Below are positions 11,339 through 25,004 of a stretch of 64,000 bases of DNA, in pieces. The stretch lies in IMG/VR virus record IMGVR_UViG_3300021356_000018, positions 223-64,222 of that record; one strand, 5' to 3'. The stretch comes from a virus. Its lineage: Duplodnaviria > Caudoviricetes. The position numbers and the translations under genes were made by a program. The first letter of the stretch is position 1; each line of letters begins with the position of its first letter. The notes under the pieces were generated by a model. It saw only the letters and a program-made list of their open reading frames with translations, was not told the origin of the DNA and did no database searches.

Positions 11339-11364
11339 AAGAGGGCCAGTCATGGCCCTTTTTT
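11339..11364. terminator. Terminator between convergent genes
   Basis: AGGGCCA-GTCA-TGGCCCT followed by a T-run. Confidence 0.75.
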
Positions 11365-12184
11365 ATAATAGTGACATACCGACTCGGATTCCAATGGTCT
11401 TAAATGAATCTAGATGACCTTCTTCATAGGCTAATTTACCATTCTCAAAGTTTTTAGCTACCATTCTGATATTCTCTCCGTCAATATAGGTTAATGCACC
11501 AATCGGTGTTTGACAATCTCCGTTTATTGTTTTAAGCATTTCTTTTTCTGCCATACAACAATACCACGTTTCCATATCATTTTTGTTTTGTATTTGTTTA
11601 ATACTTTGATCGCCCTTACGAGTTTGTAAAGCAATTACACCTTGACCAGGTGCAGGCATCATATCAGCAGTACCAAATATACGACTTGCTTTAATAGTAA
11701 TTCCCATCGCATCAAGTCCTGCTTTTGCTAAAACAATAGCATCATATTCGCTATTTTCTTGTTTAGCAATTCGAGTATCTATATTACCACGAATAGGAAC
11801 AATTTCTGCACCAGGATATAATTCTTTTAATTGCCAAATTCTGCGAGGACTACTTGTGCCAATTGTTCTTGGATTAATATGATTACCAATAAGTGCATCT
11901 CTAAAATCTGCTCTTGGTAATACACAGGCGATTTCTAATTTATCATCATTATCACGAGTCAAATCTTTAAACGCATGACAAGCAATATCGATGTCACCAT
12001 CTATAAGTGATTGTTCTATCTCTTTTGTAAATACTCCTTTGCCACCCATTTCTTCAATGGATGTTGTAGGATTAAGGTCGGCTGTTGAATCGATATGTAC
12101 GATATCTAAATCAAGCTCTAAATGTTTTAAAGCTTTGTTTGTATAGGCGATCGCTAAGTCTGATTTACGAGTTCCTATTTTCAT
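11363..12184 (-). CDS. hemC: Porphobilinogen deaminase (hydroxymethylbilane synthase)
   Basis: IGTRKS, GGKGVFTKEIE, HAFKD (catalytic Asp), GTSSPRR, IRGNIDTR, PAPGQG, DCQTPIG (cofactor Cys). Confidence 0.95.
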   Translation of the reverse strand: MKIGTRKSDLAIAYTNKALKHLELDLDIVHIDSTADLNPTTSIEEMGGKGVFTKEIEQSLIDGDIDIACHAFKDLTRDNDDKLEIACVLPRADFRDALIGNHINPRTIGTSSPRRIWQLKELYPGAEIVPIRGNIDTRIAKQENSEYDAIVLAKAGLDAMGITIKASRIFGTADMMPAPGQGVIALQTRKGDQSIKQIQNKNDMETWYCCMAEKEMLKTINGDCQTPIGALTYIDGENIRMVAKNFENGKLAYEEGHLDSFKTIGIRVGMSLL

Positions 12185-12551: not shown

Positions 12552-12626
12552 TGGTACCCCGTAGGAGAGTCGAACTCCTGTTGCCGAGATGAAAACCCGG
12601 TGTCCTAACCACTAGACGAACGGGGC
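12552..12626 (-). tRNA. tRNA-Glu (TTC)
   Basis: GCCCCGTTCGTCTAGTGGTTAGGACACCGGGTTTTCATCTCGGCAACAGGAGTTCGACTCTCCTACGGGGTACCA: cloverleaf, anticodon TTC, TTCGA T-loop, encoded CCA. Confidence 0.96.
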
Positions 12627-13156: not shown

Positions 13157-13756
13157 TTACGACGCTTCGTTGAGTGTTGCGTATGGTAAATGACCATCGT
13201 AACCTTCATATCCGCGCCACCAGCTAGGTGCTGGTCGACCCCAATCCCATTTCGCAAAAGGTTTTGCGGCATGGTAATAGTTTCTGTATGCCTGAACTGG
13301 GTCGCCTTCAACTTTACAGTCAGGATAATGGCTCATTGCTTGTGCAAATTCAGTGAGCCCAATGTCTGGTATATTTTTAGGTGGCTTACTTAGCATGATG
13401 CCAAGTTTGTTCCACGTTGCATGTATTTTATTTCTACGATATTCGTATTCGTTAGCTAGGCCACGAAAGTGTTCGTAATGCCATTCATAATTAGTCTTAC
13501 TTTCTGCAGTCCACGTTGTACAAGGGTGGAATTTATGAACAGCTAAATAGTACATGTCATCTCTTTCGTCACCAAAAGAGTAGTACGTTTGTATAGTTTT
13601 ACCTGAACGTGATGGTCTTTTTTCTGGTATACCATCGAGCATTCGGTGTACTGTTGAAAGCATTTGAGCACTCTCAACAATCATTTTGGGTATATGTTTA
13701 TCGCAACACATTTGTGCAGCAATAATTGGATTTTCGTCAAGTACAAATATATTCAT
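13157..13756 (-). CDS. Pyrimidine-dimer glycosylase/DenV-like family protein
   Basis: MNIFVLD...DKHIPKMIVESAQMLST, HPCTTW, AYRNYY; family common in T4-like marine phages. Confidence 0.7.
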   Translation of the reverse strand: MNIFVLDENPIIAAQMCCDKHIPKMIVESAQMLSTVHRMLDGIPEKRPSRSGKTIQTYYSFGDERDDMYYLAVHKFHPCTTWTAESKTNYEWHYEHFRGLANEYEYRRNKIHATWNKLGIMLSKPPKNIPDIGLTEFAQAMSHYPDCKVEGDPVQAYRNYYHAAKPFAKWDWGRPAPSWWRGYEGYDGHLPYATLNEAS

Positions 13757-13965
13757 TTTACCCAGATGTGATTATATTTTTCAGGTAGAGATTCGCAAGT
13801 GTAATCAAAACGCTCATCATAATTAATAACTTTTACACATTCGCCTGTTGAGTGACTGATATGCACATCAGGCATAGATGCAACAGAACTTAGTCCCATA
13901 TAGAATCCAGCACCAACTAGGCATATAAAAATTACTGTAAAGATTGCATTACGCATTGTATTCAC
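13753..13965 (-). CDS. Small membrane-anchored hypothetical protein
   Basis: N-terminal TM, Cys pair. Confidence 0.6.
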   Translation of the reverse strand: MNTMRNAIFTVIFICLVGAGFYMGLSSVASMPDVHISHSTGECVKVINYDERFDYTCESLPEKYNHIWVK

Positions 13966-14143
13966 CTACCTTTTTAAACTTTCTTCTTGCCTTAGAAAAT
14001 TGTTTCATTGGAGATTTGAATGTTTTCAACTCTCCGTTTAGTGCTTGATAAGCAACTAATTGACCAAGCCCATTGACATGATATTGGCCATTTGCAACTG
14101 GAGCATCGCCCCAGTCAGTTATTTCTTGAAGAATTTCAATCAT
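13949..14143 (-). CDS. Hypothetical protein
   Basis: Overlap-coupled ORF. Confidence 0.6.
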   Translation of the reverse strand: MIEILQEITDWGDAPVANGQYHVNGLGQLVAYQALNGELKTFKSPMKQFSKARRKFKKVGEYNA

Positions 14144-14364
14144 CTATAAGAACCTAGTAGTTTAGGACCTTTGGTCACAAAATCCATTCCTGCAAAGCTT
14201 CCGTGGTAATCACCGTACTTTGCATTATAAGAGAAGTTAACTTTAACGGTATTCATGTATACCGATAAGCTTTGTTCTGCTACGAAGTGCGAAACTTCAG
14301 CTTCGACTTCTTTTCCACTGTCGACATTTTCGACAATACATTCTTTAGCATAAGTATGATTCAT
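14140..14364 (-). CDS. Hypothetical protein
   Basis: Overlap-coupled ORF. Confidence 0.6.
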   Translation of the reverse strand: MNHTYAKECIVENVDSGKEVEAEVSHFVAEQSLSVYMNTVKVNFSYNAKYGDYHGSFAGMDFVTKGPKLLGSYR

Positions 14365-14365
14365 G

Positions 14366-14641
14366 TTACACCGCCTTTAGAAGTGTAGGAGCTACTCTCC
14401 ACAAACCAGCGTCTGTAGAAACTTGGATGTTTTTAATCATTACCTTAGTAACAACACCCTCGATTTTCTGTCCACGCTTATCGTTGAAGAATACGTTCTG
14501 TCCAACAGTAAAGCTATTCTTAGCCATTTGAGTTTTAGCTTTGAATTGCGTGTTGAACATTTGAGAAATCTCTTTCATTTGGCTTGAGTCAGCCTTAGCA
14601 AAAAGAGCATTCAGTTTAGTCATTTCAGATTTAGTTAGCAT
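14366..14641 (-). CDS. Hypothetical early protein (SH3-like C-terminus)
   Basis: AAAGGA SD; FTVGQNVFF...GVVTKV...WRVAPTLL pattern. Confidence 0.65.
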   Translation of the reverse strand: MLTKSEMTKLNALFAKADSSQMKEISQMFNTQFKAKTQMAKNSFTVGQNVFFNDKRGQKIEGVVTKVMIKNIQVSTDAGLWRVAPTLLKAV

Positions 14642-15082: not shown

Positions 15083-15111
15083 ATTATAATTGGTTTTGTA
15101 TCGTTTGTCAA
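15083..15111 (-). promoter_or_regulatory. Sigma70-type early promoter
   Basis: TTGACA-N17-TATAAT. Confidence 0.9.
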
Positions 15112-15155
15112 CCCTTTTTGTTAAAATAATTCACCTTTTTTTCAATTTGTTTTAT

Positions 15156-15163
15156 TATAAATA
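15156..15163 (+). promoter_or_regulatory. T4-type late promoter heading the curli-like operon
   Basis: TATAAATA 38 nt upstream of ATG 15201. Confidence 0.75.
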
Positions 15164-15200
15164 GAATCTGAGGCCCAAAGCTTCGTAAATGGAGTAAAAA

Positions 15201-15497
15201 ATGGAACAAATCTTGCAATTGATATCAGACGTCGGACTACCTATTGCTGGCGCACTAACAATGGGATTTTTCATATTTCTTATTATTAAGCAAATATTCG
15301 AAGGAATCATTGATAGTATCAAAACTCTAACAATTTTCAGTGAGGGTCTAGAAAATAGAGCGCGTTCTATGAGTAATGAAATTGTTAAAATCGACCTTTT
15401 AGTCAGTAGTGCATTAGACTTAAGACCTGATACGGATAGAATTGCAAGAGCAGAAAATTTTGTTGAAGACGGGAAAGTTGACGTAAGGAGAGACTGA
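15201..15497 (+). CDS. Small TM plus coiled-coil protein (YvrJ/BhlA-like)
   Basis: QLISDVGLPI followed by a hydrophobic helix; GGAG SD. Confidence 0.6.
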   Translation: MEQILQLISDVGLPIAGALTMGFFIFLIIKQIFEGIIDSIKTLTIFSEGLENRARSMSNEIVKIDLLVSSALDLRPDTDRIARAENFVEDGKVDVRRD

Positions 15498-15707
15498 ATG
15501 TTATATTTTGATTTTCCATTTTCTATTACTGAAAATGGGTTGAAGTTAATTGGTGTGGATACAGAATTGGAACCACATCAGCAAGTAAAAGTTGATAGAA
15601 CACCGCTTAATGTAGGTGATACTTTTACATTGGAGTTAGATGAAGATGGATGTATGGTTTTTAGAAAACATGCACCAGTACAATATGAGTTAAACTTTGG
15701 AATTTGA
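15498..15707 (+). CDS. Hypothetical protein
   Basis: AGGAGA SD; abuts neighbours. Confidence 0.6.
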   Translation: MLYFDFPFSITENGLKLIGVDTELEPHQQVKVDRTPLNVGDTFTLELDEDGCMVFRKHAPVQYELNFGI

Positions 15708-16002
15708 TATAGCAACATTAATATCCGAATATGGCTTCCCAACAATCATGGTGGTAGGTCTAGGATATTTTGTTTATTTCGTTTGGAAATTTATTAACGA
15801 ACAAATAAACCCAGCTATTGATAAACACCACATGCAACTTATTAAAGTGATTGATAGAGTAAGAATGCTCGACCAAGACTTAATTCGTTTACAACAGAAA
15901 GTAAATGTAGTTTTGGAATATCGAGCAAGACAAGAACTGATGCAACACTATGATGATAAAATTGAGGCAGAGAAAAAAGATGAAAAAACTAAAGATAATT
16001 AA
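15697..16002 (+). CDS. Small TM plus coiled-coil protein, paralog-like to 15201
   Basis: TLISEYGFPT followed by a hydrophobic helix and coiled coil. Confidence 0.6.
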   Translation: MEFDIATLISEYGFPTIMVVGLGYFVYFVWKFINEQINPAIDKHHMQLIKVIDRVRMLDQDLIRLQQKVNVVLEYRARQELMQHYDDKIEAEKKDEKTKDN

Positions 16003-16492
16003 TAAGACATTACTAGGGATTCTAGTTTTACTTTTATACTTTAGTGCACAGCATGTAATGGCTGAGCCTATTGTTCATAAATTTAAAAATCCATCTTTTA
16101 GTGGAGTAGGAACTGGTGCTCATTACTTAACTATTGAGAACCAAGAACACAGCAGAAAGAAAGCAATTAAAGATGCTCTTGAAGCTGCAGAAAGAGCTGC
16201 ACAAAGAGAATTAGATAATTCTACTCTATCAAAGTTTATTCGTAACTTGGAAAGTAGAATTTATGCTCAGTTAGCAAAACAGTTAGTAGACAATATGTTC
16301 TCTAACGATGACGCAGTAAGATTTGGATCTTTTACATTGGAAGGTTCAGTCGTAACATATGAAGTCATTACAAATGCAGACGGTACAGAATTTATTAAGA
16401 TGACAATTACTGACGAGAATGGTACTACAACTGTTATCGAGATTCCAGTAGGTACAGGAAACTTTGGAAGTGAGAATCCAGATGGCGGCTAA
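15980..16492 (+). CDS. csgF: Curli assembly protein CsgF-like
   Basis: Signal peptide, then IVHKFKNPSFSG (CsgF FxNPxFGG-like), FIRNLESRIYAQL and TTVIEIP; directly upstream of csgG. Confidence 0.85.
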   Translation: MKKLKIINKTLLGILVLLLYFSAQHVMAEPIVHKFKNPSFSGVGTGAHYLTIENQEHSRKKAIKDALEAAERAAQRELDNSTLSKFIRNLESRIYAQLAKQLVDNMFSNDDAVRFGSFTLEGSVVTYEVITNADGTEFIKMTITDENGTTTVIEIPVGTGNFGSENPDGG

Positions 16493-17453
16493 AATATTAC
16501 CTGCACTTATGTCAACACTTATCTTGGCAAGTTGTGCACAAATGCCACAGTGGTCTGATGGACCAGCTTATTGTGAATATGGCGAAGGAAGATTTGCACA
16601 AGGATTTAATACCGATTTTGATAATGATGGTATTATAAATGATGATGCTTTAAGTTTTGGAAAACAAATATATACCGGTACTCGTAAATATGTTGAAACA
16701 AAACAAATTTGTGTCGAGGCACCAGAAGTTGTAAGGTTACCATCATATATTGATTTGCTTAATTTACCACCTGCTAAAAATAAGCCTGTGGTTGCTGTAT
16801 ATAACTTTTTAGATAAAACAGGACAACGTAAAGATTCAGTTTCTGGTCAAAGCTTTTCAACAGCTGTAACTCAAGGCGGAACTGAATTATTAATTGATGC
16901 ACTCAAAACAGCAGGTGATGGTGCATGGTTTAGAGTAGTAGAAAGACAAGGGATTGATGCTTTAGTGAGAGAACGACAAATTATTCGTTCTGGCCGAGAC
17001 GAAGCTGCTAGAGTATTAGGCGAAGAGCCACAAAATTTAGGACCACTTTTATTCGCAGGAATGATAATCGAAGGTGGTATTATCGGTTATGATAGTAATA
17101 TTAAAACCGGTGGCAGAGGAGCAAGAACACTTGGTATTGGATTTAGTAAACAATACAGACAAGACCAAGTAACTGTTTCCGTAAGAGCAGTATCTGTTCT
17201 TACAGGTGAAGTACTATTGAACGTACAAACGAAAAAGACAATTTTAAGTTATGGCTCAGGTGGTGATTTATTTAGATTTTATGAACAAGGAACACAGTTA
17301 GTAGAGTATGAAGACGGTGTAGGAAATAATGAGAGTGTGACGTATGCAGTGCGAACAGCAATAGAAGCTGCCGTGCTGGAAATGGTCTATCAAGGTAATC
17401 GTCGTGGATACTGGGAAATAGACTGGAATAAAAATAAAGAGGAAGAAGAATGA
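16482..17453 (+). CDS. csgG: Curli secretion channel lipoprotein CsgG
   Basis: Lipobox LASC; VAVYNFLDKTGQRK, FSTAVTQG, WFRVVERQG, EGGIIGYDSN, TGEVLLNV. Confidence 0.95.
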   Translation: MAAKILPALMSTLILASCAQMPQWSDGPAYCEYGEGRFAQGFNTDFDNDGIINDDALSFGKQIYTGTRKYVETKQICVEAPEVVRLPSYIDLLNLPPAKNKPVVAVYNFLDKTGQRKDSVSGQSFSTAVTQGGTELLIDALKTAGDGAWFRVVERQGIDALVRERQIIRSGRDEAARVLGEEPQNLGPLLFAGMIIEGGIIGYDSNIKTGGRGARTLGIGFSKQYRQDQVTVSVRAVSVLTGEVLLNVQTKKTILSYGSGGDLFRFYEQGTQLVEYEDGVGNNESVTYAVRTAIEAAVLEMVYQGNRRGYWEIDWNKNKEEEE

Positions 17454-18175
17454 TTAGAAAACTTTTAGGCCTAAGTTTAATTATTCCAACTTTCGCATTT
17501 GCGCAAGCTACTGACGATAATGAAATTAATATTGAGCAGGTTGGTGATACTTTAACACTATACATTGACCAATATGGATATGGTAACAAAATAGGATTGG
17601 ACAACTTTTCAAGTAGTTCAAGTGCTATGGTAATTACTGGTTCAAGCTTAGATATTGATATCGACCAAATAGGTAACGAAAACTTGTTATTTGGTACATT
17701 AACAGCAGATAGCTATGTTATGAATCTATTGTTTACTGGTGACAGTAACTCTTGGGATTGGAACATTGGTGATACAGGCTCATCTGATAGCTCTACAATG
17801 GATGTGGATATCACAGGTGATTCTAACACTATGGACTTTGACCAAGGATTTAATGCAAGTGCTGAGAGATTGGATTTTGATTTAACCTTAATAGGTGACA
17901 GTAATATTTTTGATGTTGATATTGACGTGGACGACGCAATATGGAATTTTGACGTAACGGGTGGTTCAAACAATATTAATACTATGCAGAAAGATGGAGC
18001 AGAACATGAGATTAATTTAACTCTCGATGGTTCATCTGCTGATATTGATATTAATCAAATGAGTGGAACATGCCCTACAGGTGTATCAACTTGTAATGGC
18101 ATTATTACATTAGATGTCGACAGCGAAAATGCTACAATTCAGATTAATCAAAAAGATTCATCTAACGATAGCTAG
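17450..18175 (+). CDS. Curlin-like secreted beta-solenoid repeat protein 1 (CsgA/CsgB-like)
   Basis: Signal peptide (AFA); repeats NEINIEQVG, LYIDQYG, IDIDQIGNEN, GDSNTMDFDQ, IQINQ. Confidence 0.75.
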   Translation: MIRKLLGLSLIIPTFAFAQATDDNEINIEQVGDTLTLYIDQYGYGNKIGLDNFSSSSSAMVITGSSLDIDIDQIGNENLLFGTLTADSYVMNLLFTGDSNSWDWNIGDTGSSDSSTMDVDITGDSNTMDFDQGFNASAERLDFDLTLIGDSNIFDVDIDVDDAIWNFDVTGGSNNINTMQKDGAEHEINLTLDGSSADIDINQMSGTCPTGVSTCNGIITLDVDSENATIQINQKDSSNDS

Positions 18176-19280
18176 TATTTTCCTAATGTTGCCGTTGAGT
18201 TTGTCTGCAGCAGACTCAATTGGCAACATTGTTGAATACAAAGGCGATGCAACTTTAACCAGAGAAGCTGGTGAAGAGTTTGTAGTAACTGGTGCGTTTA
18301 TACCAGACATCGAAATGAACGATACGGCCGAAACAGAAAATGGCCGAATTAAAATAGAATTTTTAGACGAGGCAGAACTTAGCCTCACAGAAAACACAAA
18401 AGTATACATCGATAAAGTATACTATGACCCAGACCCAAGCAAATCAAAAATGGCCATGAGAATGGCAATGGGAACTGCAAGATTTGCATCTGGTCGTTTG
18501 GGTATGGTCAATAAAAACAATATTGATATACAAACACCCACAGCTACAATATCAGTTCGTGGTACAGATTTTACAACAACAATAGACGAATTAGGGAGGA
18601 GCCTCGTAGTACTACTTCCTGATGATAAAGGTAATCCATCAGGCACAATAGAAGTATTCAATCTGGGTGGTTCTGTGATTCTAGATGAGGCCTACGCAGC
18701 TACAATGGTCTCAACTTTAGATAGTCCACCCACTAATTCTGTCACAATAAACAATATAACACCAGCGATGATTGATAACATGTTTATCGTATCACCGCCT
18801 CAAGAAGTACAAGAATCTATAGACGAAGAGTTAGCAGATGACGCAAACCAAGACCAAGGTTTACTTGACATTGACTTCTTAGAATTTAATGAATTAGAAT
18901 ATGATTATTTAGCTGATGACGCTTTAGAATTTACAGAATTAGATATTGATTATCTTGATGTAGATTTCTTAACTGACCTTTTAGATGTAGTAGAAGAATT
19001 AGTTAAAACTACAGCAGCACTCGACGATAGAGCTATTTCAAGTAGTTCTTTTGGAGCACAACTTAAGGGTGCAGATTTTGGATTAAATGCAGATTCGCAA
19101 TACAACGTTTTTGAAGATAGTGGTAGAATTGTATTTTACAGAAATGTACAAGGAACAATACGACTCGTATTTGCAGTAGATGCTTCAGTTAAACTTGACA
19201 CTGAAGTAGATGGATATTCTGGTATCATTGACTTGAACAATGGCCAAAATTCAATAATTGTAATTAAGCAAGGTGGATAA
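18129..19280 (+). CDS. Secreted FecR-domain protein with acidic low-complexity linker
   Basis: Signal-like N-terminus; DTAETENGRIKIEFLDEAELSLTENT...GTARF...TPTATISVRGTDF; start could be 18114. Confidence 0.85.
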   Translation: MLQFRLIKKIHLTIASIFLMLPLSLSAADSIGNIVEYKGDATLTREAGEEFVVTGAFIPDIEMNDTAETENGRIKIEFLDEAELSLTENTKVYIDKVYYDPDPSKSKMAMRMAMGTARFASGRLGMVNKNNIDIQTPTATISVRGTDFTTTIDELGRSLVVLLPDDKGNPSGTIEVFNLGGSVILDEAYAATMVSTLDSPPTNSVTINNITPAMIDNMFIVSPPQEVQESIDEELADDANQDQGLLDIDFLEFNELEYDYLADDALEFTELDIDYLDVDFLTDLLDVVEELVKTTAALDDRAISSSSFGAQLKGADFGLNADSQYNVFEDSGRIVFYRNVQGTIRLVFAVDASVKLDTEVDGYSGIIDLNNGQNSIIVIKQGG

Positions 19281-19372
19281 ATAATAATGAGGTATAAAAA
19301 TAATTACCAACGTTATTTAAGATTAAAATATGGATGGTTGCAAAGACCAGGACAGATAGTGGATATTTACAT

Positions 19373-20122
19373 ATGAAAGACGAAAAAATAGATAGAGGTT
19401 TACTATACTTAGGATGGTTCATTCTAGGAATGTATTTGTTTCTTGCTGCAGGAAAAGCTTATGGCGATAACGAAATCAGTATAGAACAAACCGGAGATAA
19501 TCTTCAATTAGGCATCGACCAATTTGGTTATGATAATGTAATCCAAATGTTAGATAGTAATTCATACATTACAGCATCGAGTTTGGATATGTATTTGGTT
19601 CAATACAATGACCATACAACAACACTTCCTAATTCAATTACATTTGATGAAGTAAGTGGTTCAGGTAATCAAATGAAATTAGGTCAAGGTGTCGATTGGG
19701 ATACTCTCGATTCTGATACAGATTTAAATTGGTCATATGATTACTATGAAGGTGGTGGACACGAGATTGATATTACTTTATATGGTAACAATAATCAATT
19801 GGCAGTTCAACAAACAAACCAAACAGATGCAACAGACGGACACAACTTTGATTTACATTTAGCAGGTAGTAATAACGAAGTTAAAATTAAACAACAAAGT
19901 AGTGGCGTAAAGAATGTAGACCTTACAATATACAACGATTTTAACGATGTGTTCATTCGCCAAAAAGGCGCCAATGCAACTCATAATGCTAATATTACTC
20001 TTGATGGTTTATATGGAACAGATTTAATTTTAAAACAAATGAGTACAACTAATCAGACATATAACTTATCAGTAGATTGTATGAACTCGAATGGTTGTGG
20101 TGTAACGGTGACGCAAGAATAA
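19373..20122 (+). CDS. Curlin-like secreted repeat protein 2
   Basis: Signal peptide (AYG); NEISIEQTG, LGIDQFG, NNNQLAVQQ, NNEVKIKQ, NDVFIRQKG; start 19334 or 19373. Confidence 0.75.
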   Translation: MKDEKIDRGLLYLGWFILGMYLFLAAGKAYGDNEISIEQTGDNLQLGIDQFGYDNVIQMLDSNSYITASSLDMYLVQYNDHTTTLPNSITFDEVSGSGNQMKLGQGVDWDTLDSDTDLNWSYDYYEGGGHEIDITLYGNNNQLAVQQTNQTDATDGHNFDLHLAGSNNEVKIKQQSSGVKNVDLTIYNDFNDVFIRQKGANATHNANITLDGLYGTDLILKQMSTTNQTYNLSVDCMNSNGCGVTVTQE

Positions 20123-20433
20123 TGGAATTAGATATTTACGGAAATCCAGTAGGAACATTATATCCGGGTGATGAAGGTTGCCCTCAAGATATGATTTGTT
20201 TAACCGAAGAAGGATTTAACCAAATGCTTGCTGAAGCCGATATGCAATACAATACAGAAACGTTTCAAGTTGAGCCGATGGGCGACGCAGAAGCTATTAT
20301 AGATTTTACAACAGATTTGCTATTTTTAGATATATGGACAATTTTAAATATGGCAGTGCCTCTTACTATATTTGCCATCTATGGCTTGACGCTATATGCT
20401 GGATTCAAATGGGTACAAAAACAATTTAATTAA
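20122..20433 (+). CDS. Hypothetical protein with C-terminal TM
   Basis: TAATG coupling to the curlin-like gene. Confidence 0.6.
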   Translation: MELDIYGNPVGTLYPGDEGCPQDMICLTEEGFNQMLAEADMQYNTETFQVEPMGDAEAIIDFTTDLLFLDIWTILNMAVPLTIFAIYGLTLYAGFKWVQKQFN

Positions 20434-20435
20434 TT

Positions 20436-21371
20436 ATGAAAACATTATTACAAAGGACCATACAGGATAAAGAGGTCAATTTATATCCTGTTTGGTTAAT
20501 GAGACAAGCCGGAAGATACATGCCAGAATATATGGCGATCAAAGAAAAATCAAATGGCTTTTTAGATATGGCTCTTACTCCAAGTAAGGCAGCAGAAATT
20601 ACAATGCAACCTATTAAAGAATTTGATATGGATGCAGCAATTATATTCTCAGACATATTAATAATCAATTATGCTTTAGGGCAAGAATTAGATTATACAC
20701 CTAGTCCCGTACTGGGACCTTATAACGAATCTTTTTGGGAAACAACAGAAGGTGAGTTTATTCAAAAATGCGAACCTGTTTATGAAGCTATCAGAAGAGT
20801 AAGAGAAGAACTTGATGATAGTAAATCACTTATTGGTTTTGCAGCAGCTCCTTATACGCTCTGTAAGTACATGTGTGATTCTGTAGATTCAGATATAGTT
20901 AACCGATTAATACCATATATTGTAACTCACCTTTCAATGCAGATTGAAGCTGGTTGTGATACGATACAAATATTCGACAGTCATGCTGGTGATATATCGG
21001 AACATGACTTTGATGAAATTGTTATTGAACCAACAAAAATAATTGTTGATGTTATTCGAGCACATTATCCTCATGTTTGTATTATAGCTTTCCCAAGATT
21101 AGTTGGTGATAAAATAAACAAATACATCGAGATTGTCAATCCAGATTGTACAAATATTAGTGATGATAAACCCGTCGATGAAATACACGGTGAAGTATTA
21201 CAAGGTGGAATAACAGTACAAAGACTCATAAACGGAGAAGATATAACTCCTGTATTAGATAAAATGAAAGATAAACCTTACGTAGTAAATCTTGCTCATG
21301 GCATACATAAAACTACACCAGTAGAAAATGTGAGAGCATTAGTTAATACTGTTAAGGAATATCGTGCTTAA
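20436..21371 (+). CDS. hemE: Uroporphyrinogen decarboxylase
   Basis: PVWLMRQAGRYMPEY, DAAIIFSDIL, LIGFAAAPYTL, QIEAGCDTIQIFDS, NLAHGI. Confidence 0.95.
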   Translation: MKTLLQRTIQDKEVNLYPVWLMRQAGRYMPEYMAIKEKSNGFLDMALTPSKAAEITMQPIKEFDMDAAIIFSDILIINYALGQELDYTPSPVLGPYNESFWETTEGEFIQKCEPVYEAIRRVREELDDSKSLIGFAAAPYTLCKYMCDSVDSDIVNRLIPYIVTHLSMQIEAGCDTIQIFDSHAGDISEHDFDEIVIEPTKIIVDVIRAHYPHVCIIAFPRLVGDKINKYIEIVNPDCTNISDDKPVDEIHGEVLQGGITVQRLINGEDITPVLDKMKDKPYVVNLAHGIHKTTPVENVRALVNTVKEYRA

Positions 21372-23436
21372 ATATCTCACAAAATGGTGGACTGTATTAA
21401 TTACGATTGGTGCATTCGGTGCTTTACAAATTAGTAATCCAGATATAATTCAATCTTTTAAATATTCTTATTATGACTATCTACAATCAACACAAGAAAC
21501 AATACAGTCAAGCGATATAGTATTAGTCAATATTGACGAAAAGGCGATCGCTCAAGAAGGTCAGTATCCATGGCCTCGAGATATAGTTGCTAAATATTTA
21601 AATGAAGCTCCTGCTGATGCACTTAATGTATTGAACATAATATATTCCGAACAAGATAGATTTGGTAAAGACAATGACCTCGCAGAAGCAATGGCAAATA
21701 AAGCTGTCGTATTATCTTCTGCTCCCACTCAACAAACATCAGATGGAGTTGGAACCTTCGTTGGTGTTGCATTATTTGGAGAACAAAATGATAACTGGCT
21801 TTACGAATTCCCAGGCTTACTCTATCCTATTAATGAGTTATCTAGCTGGGCTTTTGGGGTTGGTGCTACTGTTGCAATTCCTGACCAACCAACAGGAGTC
21901 GTGCGACGTGCACCGCTCGTTGTCAAAGCAGCCGGGAATCCCTACCCATCTCTCGCACTCGACACATTACGTGTGTACTCTGGAGAACCAAGCTATCAGA
22001 TGAAAGTCGGCACTAACGGTGTCGAATGGATTCGTATGGGAAGACAAAATCCAATTACAACAAACTCTTTTGCAGAAGTACCAATATCTTTTTGGAATGA
22101 GTTTGACTCAATCAGTATAACAGAATTATCTGAACGAACAACTCATGGCCAGAATCCCTGGAGCGGTAAAGTACTTTTATATGGAATAACCGCAGAAGGT
22201 TACTCTAATCCAGTCGCAACCCCAATGGGTGCAAAGTATCCCCACGAAGTTCAAGCTCATCTGATTCAAACCGTTCTTTCAGGAGTTGAAATACAGATTC
22301 CCGACTGGCAGCCAATATTTGAGCTCGTCTTTCTTCTGATATGCTGTTTAGGAATCCTTGCAGCGGTCTATGGACTTCCCACAATTCCTGCGGTGATAAG
22401 TTCTCTTGCTCTTGTTGGTTCCGCTTACGGAGTAAGCTACTGGCTTTGGACCGATTCATTGACATTCGTCGACGCGACATTGAGTTCATTTGCTTCCTTA
22501 GTAGTATTTGCTCAATCAAGTTATAATAAGTATTATATCACGTTCCAAGAGAAACGTCAAATAGAAAAGCAATTTGCAGGTTATGCATCGCCCACAGTTG
22601 TTCGCCTCTTACAAGAGAATCCTTCTCTAATAAAAGATGGCATGAAACGTGAGATAAGTATTTGTTTTTCTGATTTGAGAGGTTTCACTCCGCTTGGGGA
22701 AAGTTTCGGTGACGACGTCAAAGGCTTGACTAAACTAATGAATGGATATATGGATGCTATCACCGAGCCTGTTCTCCATGCAGATGGTATGATTATAAAG
22801 TATATAGGGGATGCGTCAATGCACATTCACAATGCACCTATAGAAGATAAAGAACATCCTAAAAATGCAGTACAAACTGGTATTAACATGCTTCGAGCAG
22901 TGGAGAAATTTAATGAACAGATTACGGCAGAAGGTAGACCACCAATTGGTATGGGGGCTGGGATTAACACTGGTCTTGGTTATCTTGGTGAGATGGGGTC
23001 TACAGCAAGACATAGTTATGACGTCCTTGGCGACAGCGTTTCAACTGCTGCACGAATTGAGTCAAAATGTAAAGAATATGGTTGCTTATTATTAGTCGGT
23101 GAAGAAACAGTTAAACGATGTTCTCCTAATGATTTCTTTTTCTTAAAAGTAGATGACCTTGCAGTGAAAGGAAAAACAGTCGGAATTGGAATACACACTG
23201 TGTTAGACCTAGATAAGAATAAATATATTAAACCAGCAGAGATGCACGAAGCAATGCATTCAAATTATCAAAAGCAAAACTTTGATAAGGCGATAAAAAT
23301 ATGTAATGACCTCATGGATTGCTTCGAAGGACAAATGCAAGGTTATTATAAAATGTGGATTGAGCGTTGTGAGTATATGAAAACGCAAGATCTTCCGAAG
23401 GACTGGAATGGAGTTTTCATCGCGACCACTAAGTAG
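21364..23436 (+). CDS. CHASE2-domain class III adenylate cyclase
   Basis: N-terminal TM; IVLVNIDE..GQYPWPR (CHASE2); three TMs; FSDLRGFT, KYIGDA, GINTG, YDVLGDSVSTAARIE. Confidence 0.93.
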   Translation: MLKYLTKWWTVLITIGAFGALQISNPDIIQSFKYSYYDYLQSTQETIQSSDIVLVNIDEKAIAQEGQYPWPRDIVAKYLNEAPADALNVLNIIYSEQDRFGKDNDLAEAMANKAVVLSSAPTQQTSDGVGTFVGVALFGEQNDNWLYEFPGLLYPINELSSWAFGVGATVAIPDQPTGVVRRAPLVVKAAGNPYPSLALDTLRVYSGEPSYQMKVGTNGVEWIRMGRQNPITTNSFAEVPISFWNEFDSISITELSERTTHGQNPWSGKVLLYGITAEGYSNPVATPMGAKYPHEVQAHLIQTVLSGVEIQIPDWQPIFELVFLLICCLGILAAVYGLPTIPAVISSLALVGSAYGVSYWLWTDSLTFVDATLSSFASLVVFAQSSYNKYYITFQEKRQIEKQFAGYASPTVVRLLQENPSLIKDGMKREISICFSDLRGFTPLGESFGDDVKGLTKLMNGYMDAITEPVLHADGMIIKYIGDASMHIHNAPIEDKEHPKNAVQTGINMLRAVEKFNEQITAEGRPPIGMGAGINTGLGYLGEMGSTARHSYDVLGDSVSTAARIESKCKEYGCLLLVGEETVKRCSPNDFFFLKVDDLAVKGKTVGIGIHTVLDLDKNKYIKPAEMHEAMHSNYQKQNFDKAIKICNDLMDCFEGQMQGYYKMWIERCEYMKTQDLPKDWNGVFIATTK

Positions 23437-24037
23437 TTTATTACTAGGATTTCTTTTATTAGCAGTCCCGGTCTCAGCCTTTGTTCCAAAGGACCCATTT
23501 ATTTCTGAAATCTCAGACGCGCGAAAAGAACTTATCAAAATGGGGCATGCAGCTCCTTACAATCAATTAACAGTTAAGAGAGTCGTTGTTGGTAAAGCAA
23601 GAGTAATGCCAAATGGTGCTATTGTTAATCTACCACACGGTCCTGATATGGTTCCCTCTTTTTACGCCTTACAACACGACCCAAAATGGCAAGTAAAAAA
23701 AGAACCTAAATACGCAATAGACCACTGGACCGAAGATGAAAAACGAATCATAGATATACTTTTTTGGTCTGCTCAAGTACTTGATGTCTATTCAACTTAT
23801 CGTGGATTAAAATATGATTGTATAACCGAAGCAAATCCATTACTACCAGAAGTACCTGAGATACATGAAATGGTAGGAATAAAACTTTTTATTATTGGTG
23901 GACTTGGCGCTTTGTCATCTGGTGATGAAAATTTTTGGTATGGATGGAAACTTGGCGCAGGTTTAACAACAGGTGCAGTTACAGTAAATAACTTTAGACT
24001 TTTAAGAAAAGCCGAAGGGCGATGTAATAGAAGATAA
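23408..24037 (+). CDS. Membrane/secreted protein (DUF5658-like)
   Basis: Signal-like N-terminus; LDVYSTYRGL...EANPLL and C-terminal hydrophobic helices. Confidence 0.55.
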   Translation: MEFSSRPLSSLLLGFLLLAVPVSAFVPKDPFISEISDARKELIKMGHAAPYNQLTVKRVVVGKARVMPNGAIVNLPHGPDMVPSFYALQHDPKWQVKKEPKYAIDHWTEDEKRIIDILFWSAQVLDVYSTYRGLKYDCITEANPLLPEVPEIHEMVGIKLFIIGGLGALSSGDENFWYGWKLGAGLTTGAVTVNNFRLLRKAEGRCNRR

Positions 24038-24045
24038 ATAACGGA

Positions 24046-24372
24046 ATGGTGGAACTAACAGATGCAGCAATACTTAAAGCGATTGAGAGAACAGAGAATG
24101 ACAGCCGAGATACTATTCGTCTTGGTGTCACTGGGGGCGGGTGTGCTGGTTTTGAGTATATCATTGGTTACTCTGATTCAGTGGGCAATGACGATACTAT
24201 CTTAGATTATGGCAAATTTAAAATTGCTATTGACGAGATGTCTAAGCCTTATCTAAAAGATTCTACTCTTGATTGGGTTCGCGAAGGACTCAATGAATAC
24301 TTTAAAATTATTAATCCAAACGAAATAGCATCATGTGGATGCGGAGTATCAGTACAGTTTAAGGACGTTTAA
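24046..24372 (+). CDS. iscA: A-type Fe-S cluster carrier (IscA/SufA/ErpA, HesB family)
   Basis: GGGCAGFEY and NPN..SCGCGVS. Confidence 0.92.
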   Translation: MVELTDAAILKAIERTENDSRDTIRLGVTGGGCAGFEYIIGYSDSVGNDDTILDYGKFKIAIDEMSKPYLKDSTLDWVREGLNEYFKIINPNEIASCGCGVSVQFKDV

Positions 24373-24373
24373 A

Positions 24374-24535
24374 ATGGAATTTATTTTATTAGCGATCATG
24401 CTAATTTCAGTAGCATATTGTATGGGAAGTTTATTGTTTATTAAGGAAGGTAGTAAAGGAATTACACAACCTTATAAAGGAAAGAGCGGTAAATTACATA
24501 CAGCAAAAAAATCTAGAGTCGATTACATCGTATAA
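24374..24535 (+). CDS. Small membrane protein
   Basis: AAGGA SD; TM helix followed by a basic tail. Confidence 0.55.
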   Translation: MEFILLAIMLISVAYCMGSLLFIKEGSKGITQPYKGKSGKLHTAKKSRVDYIV

Positions 24536-24537
24536 AG

Positions 24538-24570
24538 AAAAGCACCCATTTCTGAGTGCTTTAGCTTTTT
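24538..24570. terminator. Probable terminator between convergent units
   Basis: AAAGCAC...GTGCTTT hairpin flanked by A/T runs. Confidence 0.55.
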
Positions 24571-24582
24571 ACCTAGGTTTGT

Positions 24583-24696
24583 CTAAACGATTGTACTTAC
24601 GGAATATACCATTACTCCTAACATCAGAGTACATAGTAAACACTCGACGCAAATCTCCACATTTAAATCAAACCATTTGCTTAGAATGGCTCTCAT
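24583..24696 (-). CDS. 37-aa Cys-rich hydrophobic peptide (not in the ORF track)
   Basis: AAGGAGA SD; MRAILSKWFDLNVEICVECLLCTLMLGVMVYSVSTIV. Confidence 0.6.
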   Translation of the reverse strand: MRAILSKWFDLNVEICVECLLCTLMLGVMVYSVSTIV

Positions 24697-24708
24697 TATT
24701 TGTCTCCT

Positions 24709-24831
24709 TTATTTTGAGTTTTGCTTTTGCCGAGCTTCGAGCCAGAGCGCTTGTCGTATCTCGTACATAGGATTATGTTTGAGATGCAAGTATGCCATCA
24801 GTAAAGCTGTAGGAATTATAATTAATTCCAT
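24709..24831 (-). CDS. 40-aa peptide (not in the ORF track)
   Basis: TAATG coupled; MELIIIPTALLMAYLHLKHNPMYEIRQALWLEARQKQNSK. Confidence 0.55.
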   Translation of the reverse strand: MELIIIPTALLMAYLHLKHNPMYEIRQALWLEARQKQNSK

Positions 24832-24923
24832 TACCTACCTGTATGCCACGGTTGAATCCAATACTTAAAGAATGTTCTTGTCCACCCTCGGGTGAAAAAT
24901 CTACGGATTGCTTTAAATAACAT
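24831..24923 (-). CDS. 30-aa basic aromatic peptide (not in the ORF track)
   Basis: AGGAG SD; MLFKAIRRFFTRGWTRTFFKYWIQPWHTGR. Confidence 0.55.
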   Translation of the reverse strand: MLFKAIRRFFTRGWTRTFFKYWIQPWHTGR

Positions 24924-25004
24924 TTGGACTGACTCCTAATATTGAAACACAAAAAATACTAACGAGAACAAACAATTCTAATCGTTCTTGTATTTTTTCT
25001 TTCA

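Follow-up and report, generated by a model that had tools for sequence, protein, structure and literature searches.

A pelagiphage-type type VIII secretion module with a FecR-domain protein and a CHASE2 cyclase in a T4-like marine myovirus

Type VIII secretion genes have been described in phages in three papers, each of which was available to us in part. In pelagimyophages, csgF and csgG were reported together with a 'sibling capture' idea (PMC7029224). For phage Melnitz a lysis-timing pore was proposed, in a text that in its available parts mentions neither a cyclase nor a FecR protein and states that csgA/B are lacking (PMC9004378). In 2022 a full module with CsgA/B-like proteins, a FecR protein and an adenylate cyclase was reported from podo- and myophages (PMC9599517); it was found at all 65 ocean stations examined and detected in metatranscriptomes, superinfection defence, aggregation and import were advanced as hypotheses, and a link to iron was raised. 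The main text of that paper, in the portion available, does not mention CHASE2, DUF5658, a promoter, transmembrane or solenoid, and we found no other paper that joins CsgG, phage, adenylate cyclase and FecR. Here we describe a block of curli-type secretion genes in a linear virus record from IMG/VR (IMGVR_UViG_3300021356_000018). The window, meaning the whole stretch of DNA analysed, comprises 64,000 of the 64,222 bases of this record, which is estimated to hold about 38% of a genome.

The block is a further example of the published pelagiphage-type type VIII secretion module, here in a T4-like marine myovirus. An earlier note on this DNA, made from the sequence alone, had read it as a secretion channel, amyloid-like cargo and a signalling chain that travel together. 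That interpretation was reasonable and is partly supported, and it is largely a rediscovery. The roles in aggregation and superinfection that it suggested had already been proposed, in the parts available of PMC9599517 and PMC7029224, and are thus not new, and its statement that most phage csgFG lack recognised curlin subunits has been overtaken by what is available of PMC9599517.

As the most likely account of the block, to which we assign a probability of roughly 0.6, we propose a type VIII secretion module under a late promoter that exports fibres and carries a FecR–CHASE2 sensor pair. Transcription would occur late, from a T4-type late promoter. The lipoprotein CsgG and CsgF would assemble into an outer-membrane channel, which two Sec-exported curlin-repeat beta-solenoid proteins would cross before polymerising outside the infected cell. 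Once secreted, the FecR protein would pair with the CHASE2 membrane cyclase as an extracytoplasmic sensor. Such a pair would have been acquired from bacteria, where it accompanies export systems for surface proteins, and would turn the state of the envelope or of secretion into a cyclic nucleotide, probably cyclic AMP (cAMP). The genes for HemE, IscA and a 118-residue transmembrane protein would occupy a variable slot as metabolic or accessory inserts unrelated to the rest. The module, which is abundant among ocean viruses, would supply streamlined hosts with a secretion system that they lack.

Conservation and setting of the gene block

We used the FecR-domain protein as bait in a search of IMG/VR and recovered 54 loci with 43–81% identity; the per-gene counts that follow take in only loci with enough flanking sequence. 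csgG, csgF and a small transmembrane gene were each present in all 44 loci that could be scored, the cyclase gene in 35 of 35 and a gene for a DUF5658-like protein in 30 of 33. Two curlin-repeat proteins with signal-like segments occur in every related locus (64 position-1 open reading frames (ORFs)). The modal order, found at 18 loci, is tm1-tm2-csgF-csgG-curlin-FecR-curlin-cyclase-DUF5658, in which tm1 and tm2 are the small transmembrane genes. Thus, the channel, the curlin-like proteins, the FecR protein and the cyclase do travel together, as the earlier note had claimed, and linkage of the FecR and CHASE2 genes to csgFG is conserved in related genomes.

Among phage isolates, the 7 records retrieved with a CsgG bait come from HTVC008M, Melnitz and a single 1.5-kb fragment, and a cyclase bait retrieved HTVC008M and Melnitz in 6 of 9 records. 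Both phages are annotated with the cassette (KC465899 and MZ577097, respectively). Megablast found nothing in the phage collection that matches the block. A profile search of genome contigs with the FecR alignment returned 15 loci, 14 of which carry the phage cassette, including the virus-only small transmembrane genes. These 14 contigs (L058–L071) come from metagenome-assembled genomes (MAGs) labelled Sphingobacteriales, Rhodobacterales, Synechococcus, Planctomycetaceae, Pelagibacter, Maricaulis, Parvibaculum and others, and are probably phage contigs binned into bacterial MAGs; with the full phage cassette turning up in MAGs of unrelated phyla, we do not regard them as bacterial homes of the module. 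The fifteenth locus (Prevotella, E = 7e-4) holds no further cassette gene. Near-identical DNA to positions 15100–24600 (at least half of the sampled words) is present in 17 seawater, salt marsh or marine metagenome runs; this phage type is widespread in coastal samples.

The block is likely to be transcribed late, as predicted from a conserved motif. The earlier note had placed a late promoter at the head of the run, and we find TATAAATA there. Across the window the motif occurs at chance level (8 observed against 8.1 expected). In 33 of 61 related loci it lies within 130 nucleotides (nt) upstream of the first small transmembrane gene, far above chance, and its surroundings have diverged. Contigs of relatives assembled from metatranscriptome libraries cover tm1, csgG to curlin-1, hemE and the cyclase, and hint weakly at expression; the parts of the block that they leave uncovered, such as 19538–19854, give no sign of silence, and such contigs cannot show where transcripts start.

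A Pfam scan of the window, which beyond the block took in 57 other ORFs of at least 110 residues, revealed T4-like myovirus gene content. The plus strand at 0.7–11 kb encodes terminase, sheath, tube, portal gp20, prohead protease, scaffold and gp23, and the minus strand from about 26 kb onwards encodes RNase H, ligase, RegA, clamp and clamp loader, a family B polymerase and gp46/47-like proteins. The gp23 shares 63–64% identity with its counterparts in Sinorhizobium phages and Methylophilales phage Melnitz. Between the structural and replication modules lie the 14 ORFs of the block (15201–24535; Table 1), which share the orientation of the terminase-to-gp23 genes and overlap or are separated by gaps of at most 53 nt. 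Every gene named in the earlier list is where that list had placed it, on the plus strand; its total of 12 becomes 14 with the 69-residue ORF between the small transmembrane proteins and the 66-residue ORF beyond iscA. Families of the PHROGs virus collection match the small transmembrane proteins, CsgF, CsgG, the FecR protein, the cyclase and IscA.

Table 1. Features of the type VIII secretion block, in window coordinates (aa, amino acids; TM, transmembrane).
Feature	Position	Strand	Evidence or remark
TATAAATA, T4-type late-promoter-like motif heading the block	15156..15163	+	37 nt before first ATG
Small single-pass membrane protein 1, 98 aa	15201..15497	+	phrog_18771 3.7e-23; no Pfam match
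69-aa ORF	15498..15707	+	tblastn: only in closest relatives L003, L004, L025, L027
Small single-pass membrane protein 2, 101 aa	15697..16002	+	phrog_18771 6.7e-27
CsgF-like protein	15950..16492	+	Pfam CsgF 1.4e-16; phrog_35372 1.2e-37
CsgG-like outer-membrane lipoprotein channel	16464..17453	+	Pfam CsgG 1e-54
Curlin-like repeat protein 1, 241 aa	17450..18175	+	Curlin_rpt 8e-4, below cut-off
Secreted FecR-domain protein	18114..19280	+	Pfam FecR 4.5e-10
Curlin-like repeat protein 2, 262 aa	19334..20122	+	Curlin_rpt 4.9e-3, below cut-off
118-aa protein with C-terminal TM segment	20077..20433	+	ORF list, hydrophobicity
hemE, uroporphyrinogen decarboxylase	20436..21371	+	Pfam URO-D 6.3e-69
CHASE2 class III cyclase	21364..23436	+	CHASE2 2e-30, Guanylate_cyc 4.2e-16; phrog_35576 2.6e-145
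DUF5658-like membrane protein	23408..24037	+	Pfam DUF5658 2e-5
iscA, IscA-like Fe-S assembly protein	24046..24372	+	Pfam Fe-S_biosyn 1.2e-12
66-aa TM ORF, last of block	24335..24535	+	ORF list, hydrophobicity

Not all genes of the block belong to its core. The earlier note had counted hemE, the 118-residue transmembrane protein and iscA as members, but these are variable inserts, present in only 8, 10 and 5 of 35 related loci, respectively. No hemE stands at the equivalent place in HTVC008M or Melnitz, and the position of iscA shifts between relatives. In RNA-library contigs of relatives, position 20080 is joined to 20430/20431 (three runs), skipping the 118-residue gene, or to 21379 (one run), skipping that gene and hemE, which fits a variable slot. 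The window thereby adds a variant with haem and Fe-S gene inserts and leaves the overall picture unchanged.

On the minus strand, outside the block, are hemC (porphobilinogen deaminase, 11363–12184; Pfam 2.1e-61) and a tRNA-Glu(UUC) gene (12552–12626), and hemC, the tRNA and hemE lie within 10 kb. The tRNA presumably feeds the C5 route to aminolevulinate, which would tie it to the tetrapyrrole pathway of hemC and hemE. Just past the block a hairpin with a 10-bp stem (24539–24562) is terminator-like in the minus-strand scan only. The approximately 470 nt that follow the block (24536–25004) hold no convincing ORF, and Rfam found only the tRNA in the window and nothing in this interval.

The secretion channel and the curlin-like proteins

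The CsgG-like protein matches solved E. coli CsgG structures over residues 90–323 (phmmer E = 3.8e-49), and is 52% identical to CsgG of HTVC008M and 47% identical to that of Melnitz. Its lipobox, which the earlier note had called intact, reads LILASC in the translation. Between the lipobox and the CsgG domain there is an extension of about 75 residues (window 16536–16764). Within this extension an acidic stretch, DNDGIINDD, resembles a calcium-binding loop; the HTVC008M protein is shorter. The CsgF-like protein exceeds the Pfam cut-off of 25.8 bits, although a sequence search of the PDB with it gave no match. It has an N-terminal signal-like hydrophobic segment at residues 13–38, and its mature N-terminus carries an FKNPSFSG stretch resembling what we take to be the pore-binding motif of E. 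coli CsgF. The earlier note had recognised neither csgE nor csgC, and a search for their families (PF10627 and PF10610) found neither in any of five phage records: that of the window, those of HTVC008M and Melnitz, and those of two large relatives. The two small transmembrane proteins at the head of the block are paralogues (BLASTP 2e-8; same PHROGs family) whose Atlas neighbours are virus-only clusters without Pfam families.

Both curlin-like proteins start with a hydrophobic, signal-like segment. Their Curlin_rpt scores are 19.7 bits (protein 1) and 17.2 bits (protein 2) against a gathering score of 20.7, and an alignment of 33 position-1 curlin-like proteins contains an invariant G and N every 22–26 residues. 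The AlphaFold2 model of curlin-like protein 1 is all beta with long paired strands (predicted local distance difference test score (pLDDT) 81, predicted template modelling score 0.77). VIA, a structure search independent of Foldseek, ranks a solved CsgA first (8c50_A; Z 16.7 over 192 aligned residues with 19% identity, root-mean-square deviation (rmsd) 8.9), with SufD-like and other beta-helices next at Z 12–16. The curlin-like 2 family is homologous to the curlin-like 1 family (hhalign probability 99.5%, E = 2.3e-22). Thus, protein 1 models as a beta-solenoid, as the earlier note had expected of the repeat proteins, and protein 2 is homologous to it.

These repeat proteins bear on the proposal made for Melnitz, that CsgG–CsgF is a gated lysis-timing pore of a pinholin- or secretin-like kind and not a fibre exporter (PMC9004378). 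The late-promoter motif and the failure to find a CsgE gate would suit such a pore, as would the statement of the Melnitz authors, in the parts of their paper available, that no clumping was seen. We nevertheless judge it improbable. It leaves unexplained why two conserved, signal-bearing curlin-repeat proteins are found in every related locus. An outer-membrane pore by itself, moreover, does not depolarise the inner membrane, which also counts against it. The absence of csgA/B stated for Melnitz in the available text of PMC9004378 is contradicted both by the GenBank annotation of that phage and by our analysis of the curlin-like proteins.

The FecR-domain protein, the CHASE2 cyclase and their bacterial counterparts

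The FecR-domain protein begins with a hydrophobic signal-like segment (residues 11–36), and the FecR domain extends from about residue 37. Its model (pLDDT 70.6) comprises an N-terminal beta domain (about 37–200), a linker and a C-terminal beta domain (about 320–388); the linker stretch 223–312 is of low model confidence and contains 28 D+E against 2 K+R. The N domain superposes on the C-terminal cell-surface signalling domain of PupR (6ovk_R; Z 15.1, rmsd 2.5, 135 aligned). The protein has no cytoplasmic anti-sigma domain, only the hydrophobic segment preceding the FecR domain, and an STN subdomain was not detected in it, the match ending at chain residue 249. Neither the 14 ORFs of the block nor the 57 other window ORFs, from a record that is about 38% of a genome, gave a Pfam match to a sigma-70-family protein or a TonB receptor. 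A sequence search of the PDB with the FecR profile returned nothing. The protein is a FecR-fold protein and not a FecR-type regulator. We also considered whether its C-terminus is a curlin-like strand, and rejected this on an hhalign probability of 5%.

We looked for bacterial counterparts in a sample of 301 Alphaproteobacteria, in which the best 150 places were listed for each query. The phage FecR protein matched in 104 genomes, CHASE2 in 132 and CsgG in 48. Manual cross-matching showed that, of the 150 CHASE2 places listed, at least 29 (in 25 genomes) share a contig with a listed FecR-like place no more than 10 kb away, which is a lower bound. Among the listed places in the 301 genomes, none for CsgG lies within 10 kb of one for CHASE2, two phage-like contigs of genome G001 excepted, and the nearest is 17.5 kb away.

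The 20 best CHASE2 places were then fetched regardless of their neighbours. In 16 of them a CHASE2-cyclase ORF aligned over its full length to the window cyclase with 26–32% identity, and ORF picking missed the CHASE2 ORF in the four others, which are high-GC loci (L105, L110, L116 and L118). ABC/HlyD/OEP type I secretion genes lie within about 5 kb in 10 of the 20 loci. A FecR-like gene is present in 6; the local FecR hidden Markov model alone found 2, the rest coming from Pfam plus the FecR scan. In four of these six, the product is a giant protein of RTX, cadherin or BNR type that carries its FecR domain close to the N-terminus (found by Pfam in L112 and L122, and by the phage FecR scan in L106 and L110). 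CHASE2 cyclases next to type I secretion genes or giant FecR-headed proteins were seen at L106, L110, L112, L117, L119, L122, L123 and L124, and at L122 a gene for an EAL protein with a cNMP-binding domain (13327–14631) lies near the CHASE2 cyclase. In a SAR11-family genome (1.2 Mb) a CHASE2-SpoIIE phosphatase, a FecR-domain protein and a ShlB/POTRA outer-membrane transporter are encoded together (L125, 8049–15934), in an interval that also holds a 435-residue gene of unknown family and an alternative oxidase.

Related pairs have been described. In the available part of PMC5192318, a LysM-FecR protein adjoins a CHASE2 histidine kinase both in P. aeruginosa and in a biofilm operon of Burkholderia, and in that of PMC5498481, S. 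meliloti has the CHASE2 cyclases CyaD1, CyaD2 and CyaK and a periplasmic FecR-domain protein, SMc02177, under cAMP control. None of the 10 papers listed, out of 128 matching the subject, mentions CHASE2, and within that scope we found no earlier description of a linkage of CHASE2 with type I secretion or RTX proteins. Judged from gene neighbourhoods, FecR-domain proteins and CHASE2 receptors constitute a widespread, predicted bacterial sensor pair. The bacterial linkage implies that the pair predates the phages, and it was apparently in viruses that the pair became joined to csgFG, which agrees with PMC9599517 as far as that text was available. Because the pair is conserved in bacteria, a relay from FecR to CHASE2 is plausible in the phage; a complex prediction for the two partners (FecR residues 33–388, CHASE2 residues 23–322) scored 0.00, which counts neither way.

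These comparisons also bear on a reading in which the block is an iron or haem module, the FecR protein being an iron-responsive regulator and the pore an importer of iron compounds, tied to hemE, hemC and iscA. The name FecR invites it, as do the presence of hemE and iscA in the block and of hemC nearby, and an import idea and an iron link were raised in the available part of PMC9599517. However, hemE and iscA are confined to a minority of related loci and iscA moves, the FecR protein has no cytoplasmic anti-sigma part, no sigma-70-family or TonB-receptor match was found among the other window ORFs, and the bacterial FecR–CHASE2 pairs sit with adhesin secretion genes or, in the published cases as available, biofilm operons. 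We consider an iron module highly improbable, and the FecR gene is better read as a CHASE2 sensor partner than as an iron regulator.

How the FecR protein might sense its surroundings is suggested by a further structural match. Residues 33–132 resemble 5ix9 (Foldseek E = 1.6e-3, TMt 0.76; VIA Z 6.3, which is weak, with 74 of 76 residues aligned and 23% identity), the periplasmic plug domain of the MpIBP adhesin and template for the LapA retention module (PMC5550230 and bioRxiv 10.1101/198937, in their available parts). The FecR protein could then be a partly exported substrate, its N-terminal beta domain held as a periplasmic plug, its acidic, disordered linker of about 90 residues threaded through the CsgG–CsgF pore and its C-terminal domain outside, with the CHASE2 cyclase reading occupancy. 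The modelled arrangement of folded domain, acidic low-confidence linker and folded domain would suit such a plug and tether, as would the FecR domains near the N-termini of the giant RTX and cadherin proteins beside alphaproteobacterial CHASE2 cyclases. Resemblance at Z 6.3 is nonetheless common among beta-sandwich domains, and the FecR protein is not homologous to the curlin-like family. We regard the idea as unlikely, and put forward with the same reserve its generalisation, that FecR-domain proteins and CHASE2 might be a general bacterial monitor of surface-protein export (type I, ShlB-type and phage type VIII), with the periplasmic domain of the tethered phage protein reporting engagement of channel or fibre to the cyclase. 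If true, the virus would equip its host with a surface structure and with a sensor that feeds back on it, neither of which the host has of its own.

The cyclase itself consists of a transmembrane segment, a periplasmic CHASE2 domain, a transmembrane bundle, a class III cyclase domain and a C-terminal tail. CHASE2 spans residues 18–327, and hydrophobic segments lie at 314–383 in addition to an N-terminal hydrophobic stretch. The catalytic domain profile matches solved class III adenylate cyclases (for example, CyaB 3r5g, 5.4e-50), and a PDB sequence search found no solved relative of the CHASE2 part. The protein is 52% identical to the Melnitz cyclase over its full length. The cyclases of phage cassettes form two clades, and that of the window comprises 17 loci with 75–90% identity. 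The motifs of this clade and of Melnitz are FSDLRGFT, KYIGDA and D[VI]LGD[SA]VSTAAR (GDSVSTAAR in the window itself), whereas the other phage clade, HTVC008M and 12 of 16 alphaproteobacterial homologues have V(N)LA(A/S)R, with Ser or Thr at the first position. The window clade keeps what we take to be both metal-binding Asp residues, the Lys–Asp pair and the Arg, and has Ser at the presumed catalytic Asn position, so that of the transition-state Asn–Arg pair only the Arg is present; the Lys of the KYIGDA motif is presumably the one that specifies a purine, and it is present in the window cyclase. Besides the window cyclase gene, the Ser-for-Asn site was recorded in related locus L002 (12526–14577).

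We searched for a receiver of the nucleotide through one receptor family, cNMP_binding (PF00027), which was found in none of the same five phage records. It occurs in only 3 of 61 Pelagibacteraceae genomes, although CHASE2 receptors are present in that family. The cyclase might therefore lie outside a CRP-type circuit, either making a nucleotide for a non-canonical receptor or acting as a weakly active or inactive sensor scaffold. Both the scarcity of cNMP_binding and the Ser for the catalytic Asn, in the 17-locus clade and in Melnitz, point that way. However, the metal Asp motifs, the Lys–Asp pair and the Arg are kept, the domain is 75–90% conserved within the clade, the other phage clade and the bacterial homologues retain Asn, and the receiver search covered a single family; we hold this reading to be distinctly improbable.

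Several observations weigh against fibre export coupled to a FecR–CHASE2 sensor. The viral synteny counts are conditional on the FecR bait. Both Curlin_rpt matches fall below the Pfam cut-off, the CsgA match of the curlin-like 1 model has an rmsd of 8.9 with generic beta-helices nearly equal to it, and Foldseek found no PDB match to that model at E ≤ 0.001. The CsgE and CsgC families were found in none of the five phage records. The Melnitz authors saw no clumping, according to what is available of PMC9004378. The window-clade and Melnitz cyclases have Ser at the catalytic Asn position, and no cAMP receiver was located: none of the five phage records gave a cNMP_binding match, and in Pelagibacteraceae such a domain occurs in only 3 of 61 genomes. 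With these points taken into account, fibre export with a sensor pair is the reading to which the probability of roughly 0.6 applies. To what is available of PMC9599517 our analysis adds the bacterial FecR–CHASE2 pairing with adhesin secretion, the lack of anti-sigma parts in the FecR protein, the missing receiver and the Ser-for-Asn clade.

Comparison with described systems

Like the csgBAC-csgDEFG genes of E. coli, the phage block encodes a CsgG channel, CsgF and candidate repeat subunits, the latter modelled as beta-solenoids nearest a solved CsgA. It differs in having no CsgE, CsgC or CsgD and in adding the FecR protein, the CHASE2 cyclase, the DUF5658-like protein and the small transmembrane proteins. 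Its subunits are longer than those of E. coli curli, with repeats of 22–26 residues and a conserved Cys near the C-terminus, and its CsgG is extended N-terminally by about 75 residues.

With the FecR/PupR anti-sigma regulators, the phage FecR protein shares a Pfam FecR domain and the fold of the PupR C-terminal domain. Unlike them, it lacks an anti-sigma domain and a detected STN, has no FecI or FecA partner in the window, and instead continues beyond the FecR domain into an acidic linker and a small domain at the C-terminus. The retention module of LapA/MpIBP-type RTX adhesins (5ix9) is similar in that the N-terminal beta domain of the phage protein superposes on it and in that, going by the available descriptions of LapA, a flexible segment follows this domain. 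The similarity is weak, however, the phage channel would be CsgG and not a TolC-like pore, and no lapG or lapD genes were seen with the phage block.

The phage arrangement resembles the bacterial FecR–CHASE2 pairs in encoding a secreted FecR-domain protein beside a CHASE2 membrane receptor. The bacterial outputs, in contrast, vary between cyclase, histidine kinase and SpoIIE phosphatase, and in place of CsgG the genes nearby encode type I or ShlB-type secretion components and giant RTX or cadherin proteins.

The closest described system is the type VIII secretion module of pelagiphages, known from HTVC008M, Melnitz, HTVC023P-type podophages and pelagimyophages (PMC9599517, as available). The window departs from it in having the 118-residue transmembrane gene and hemE between curlin-like 2 and the cyclase, iscA past the DUF5658-like gene and a 69-residue ORF between the small transmembrane genes, and its block comes after the gp23 structural genes and not after gp32. 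The upstream genes are called "histidine kinases" in the available text of PMC9599517, whereas those of the window, which may be the same genes, encode membrane proteins of about 100 residues without Pfam matches. Beyond these differences the window and the pelagiphage module have the same order: small upstream genes, csgF, csgG, a curlin-repeat gene, FecR, a second curlin-repeat gene and the cyclase.

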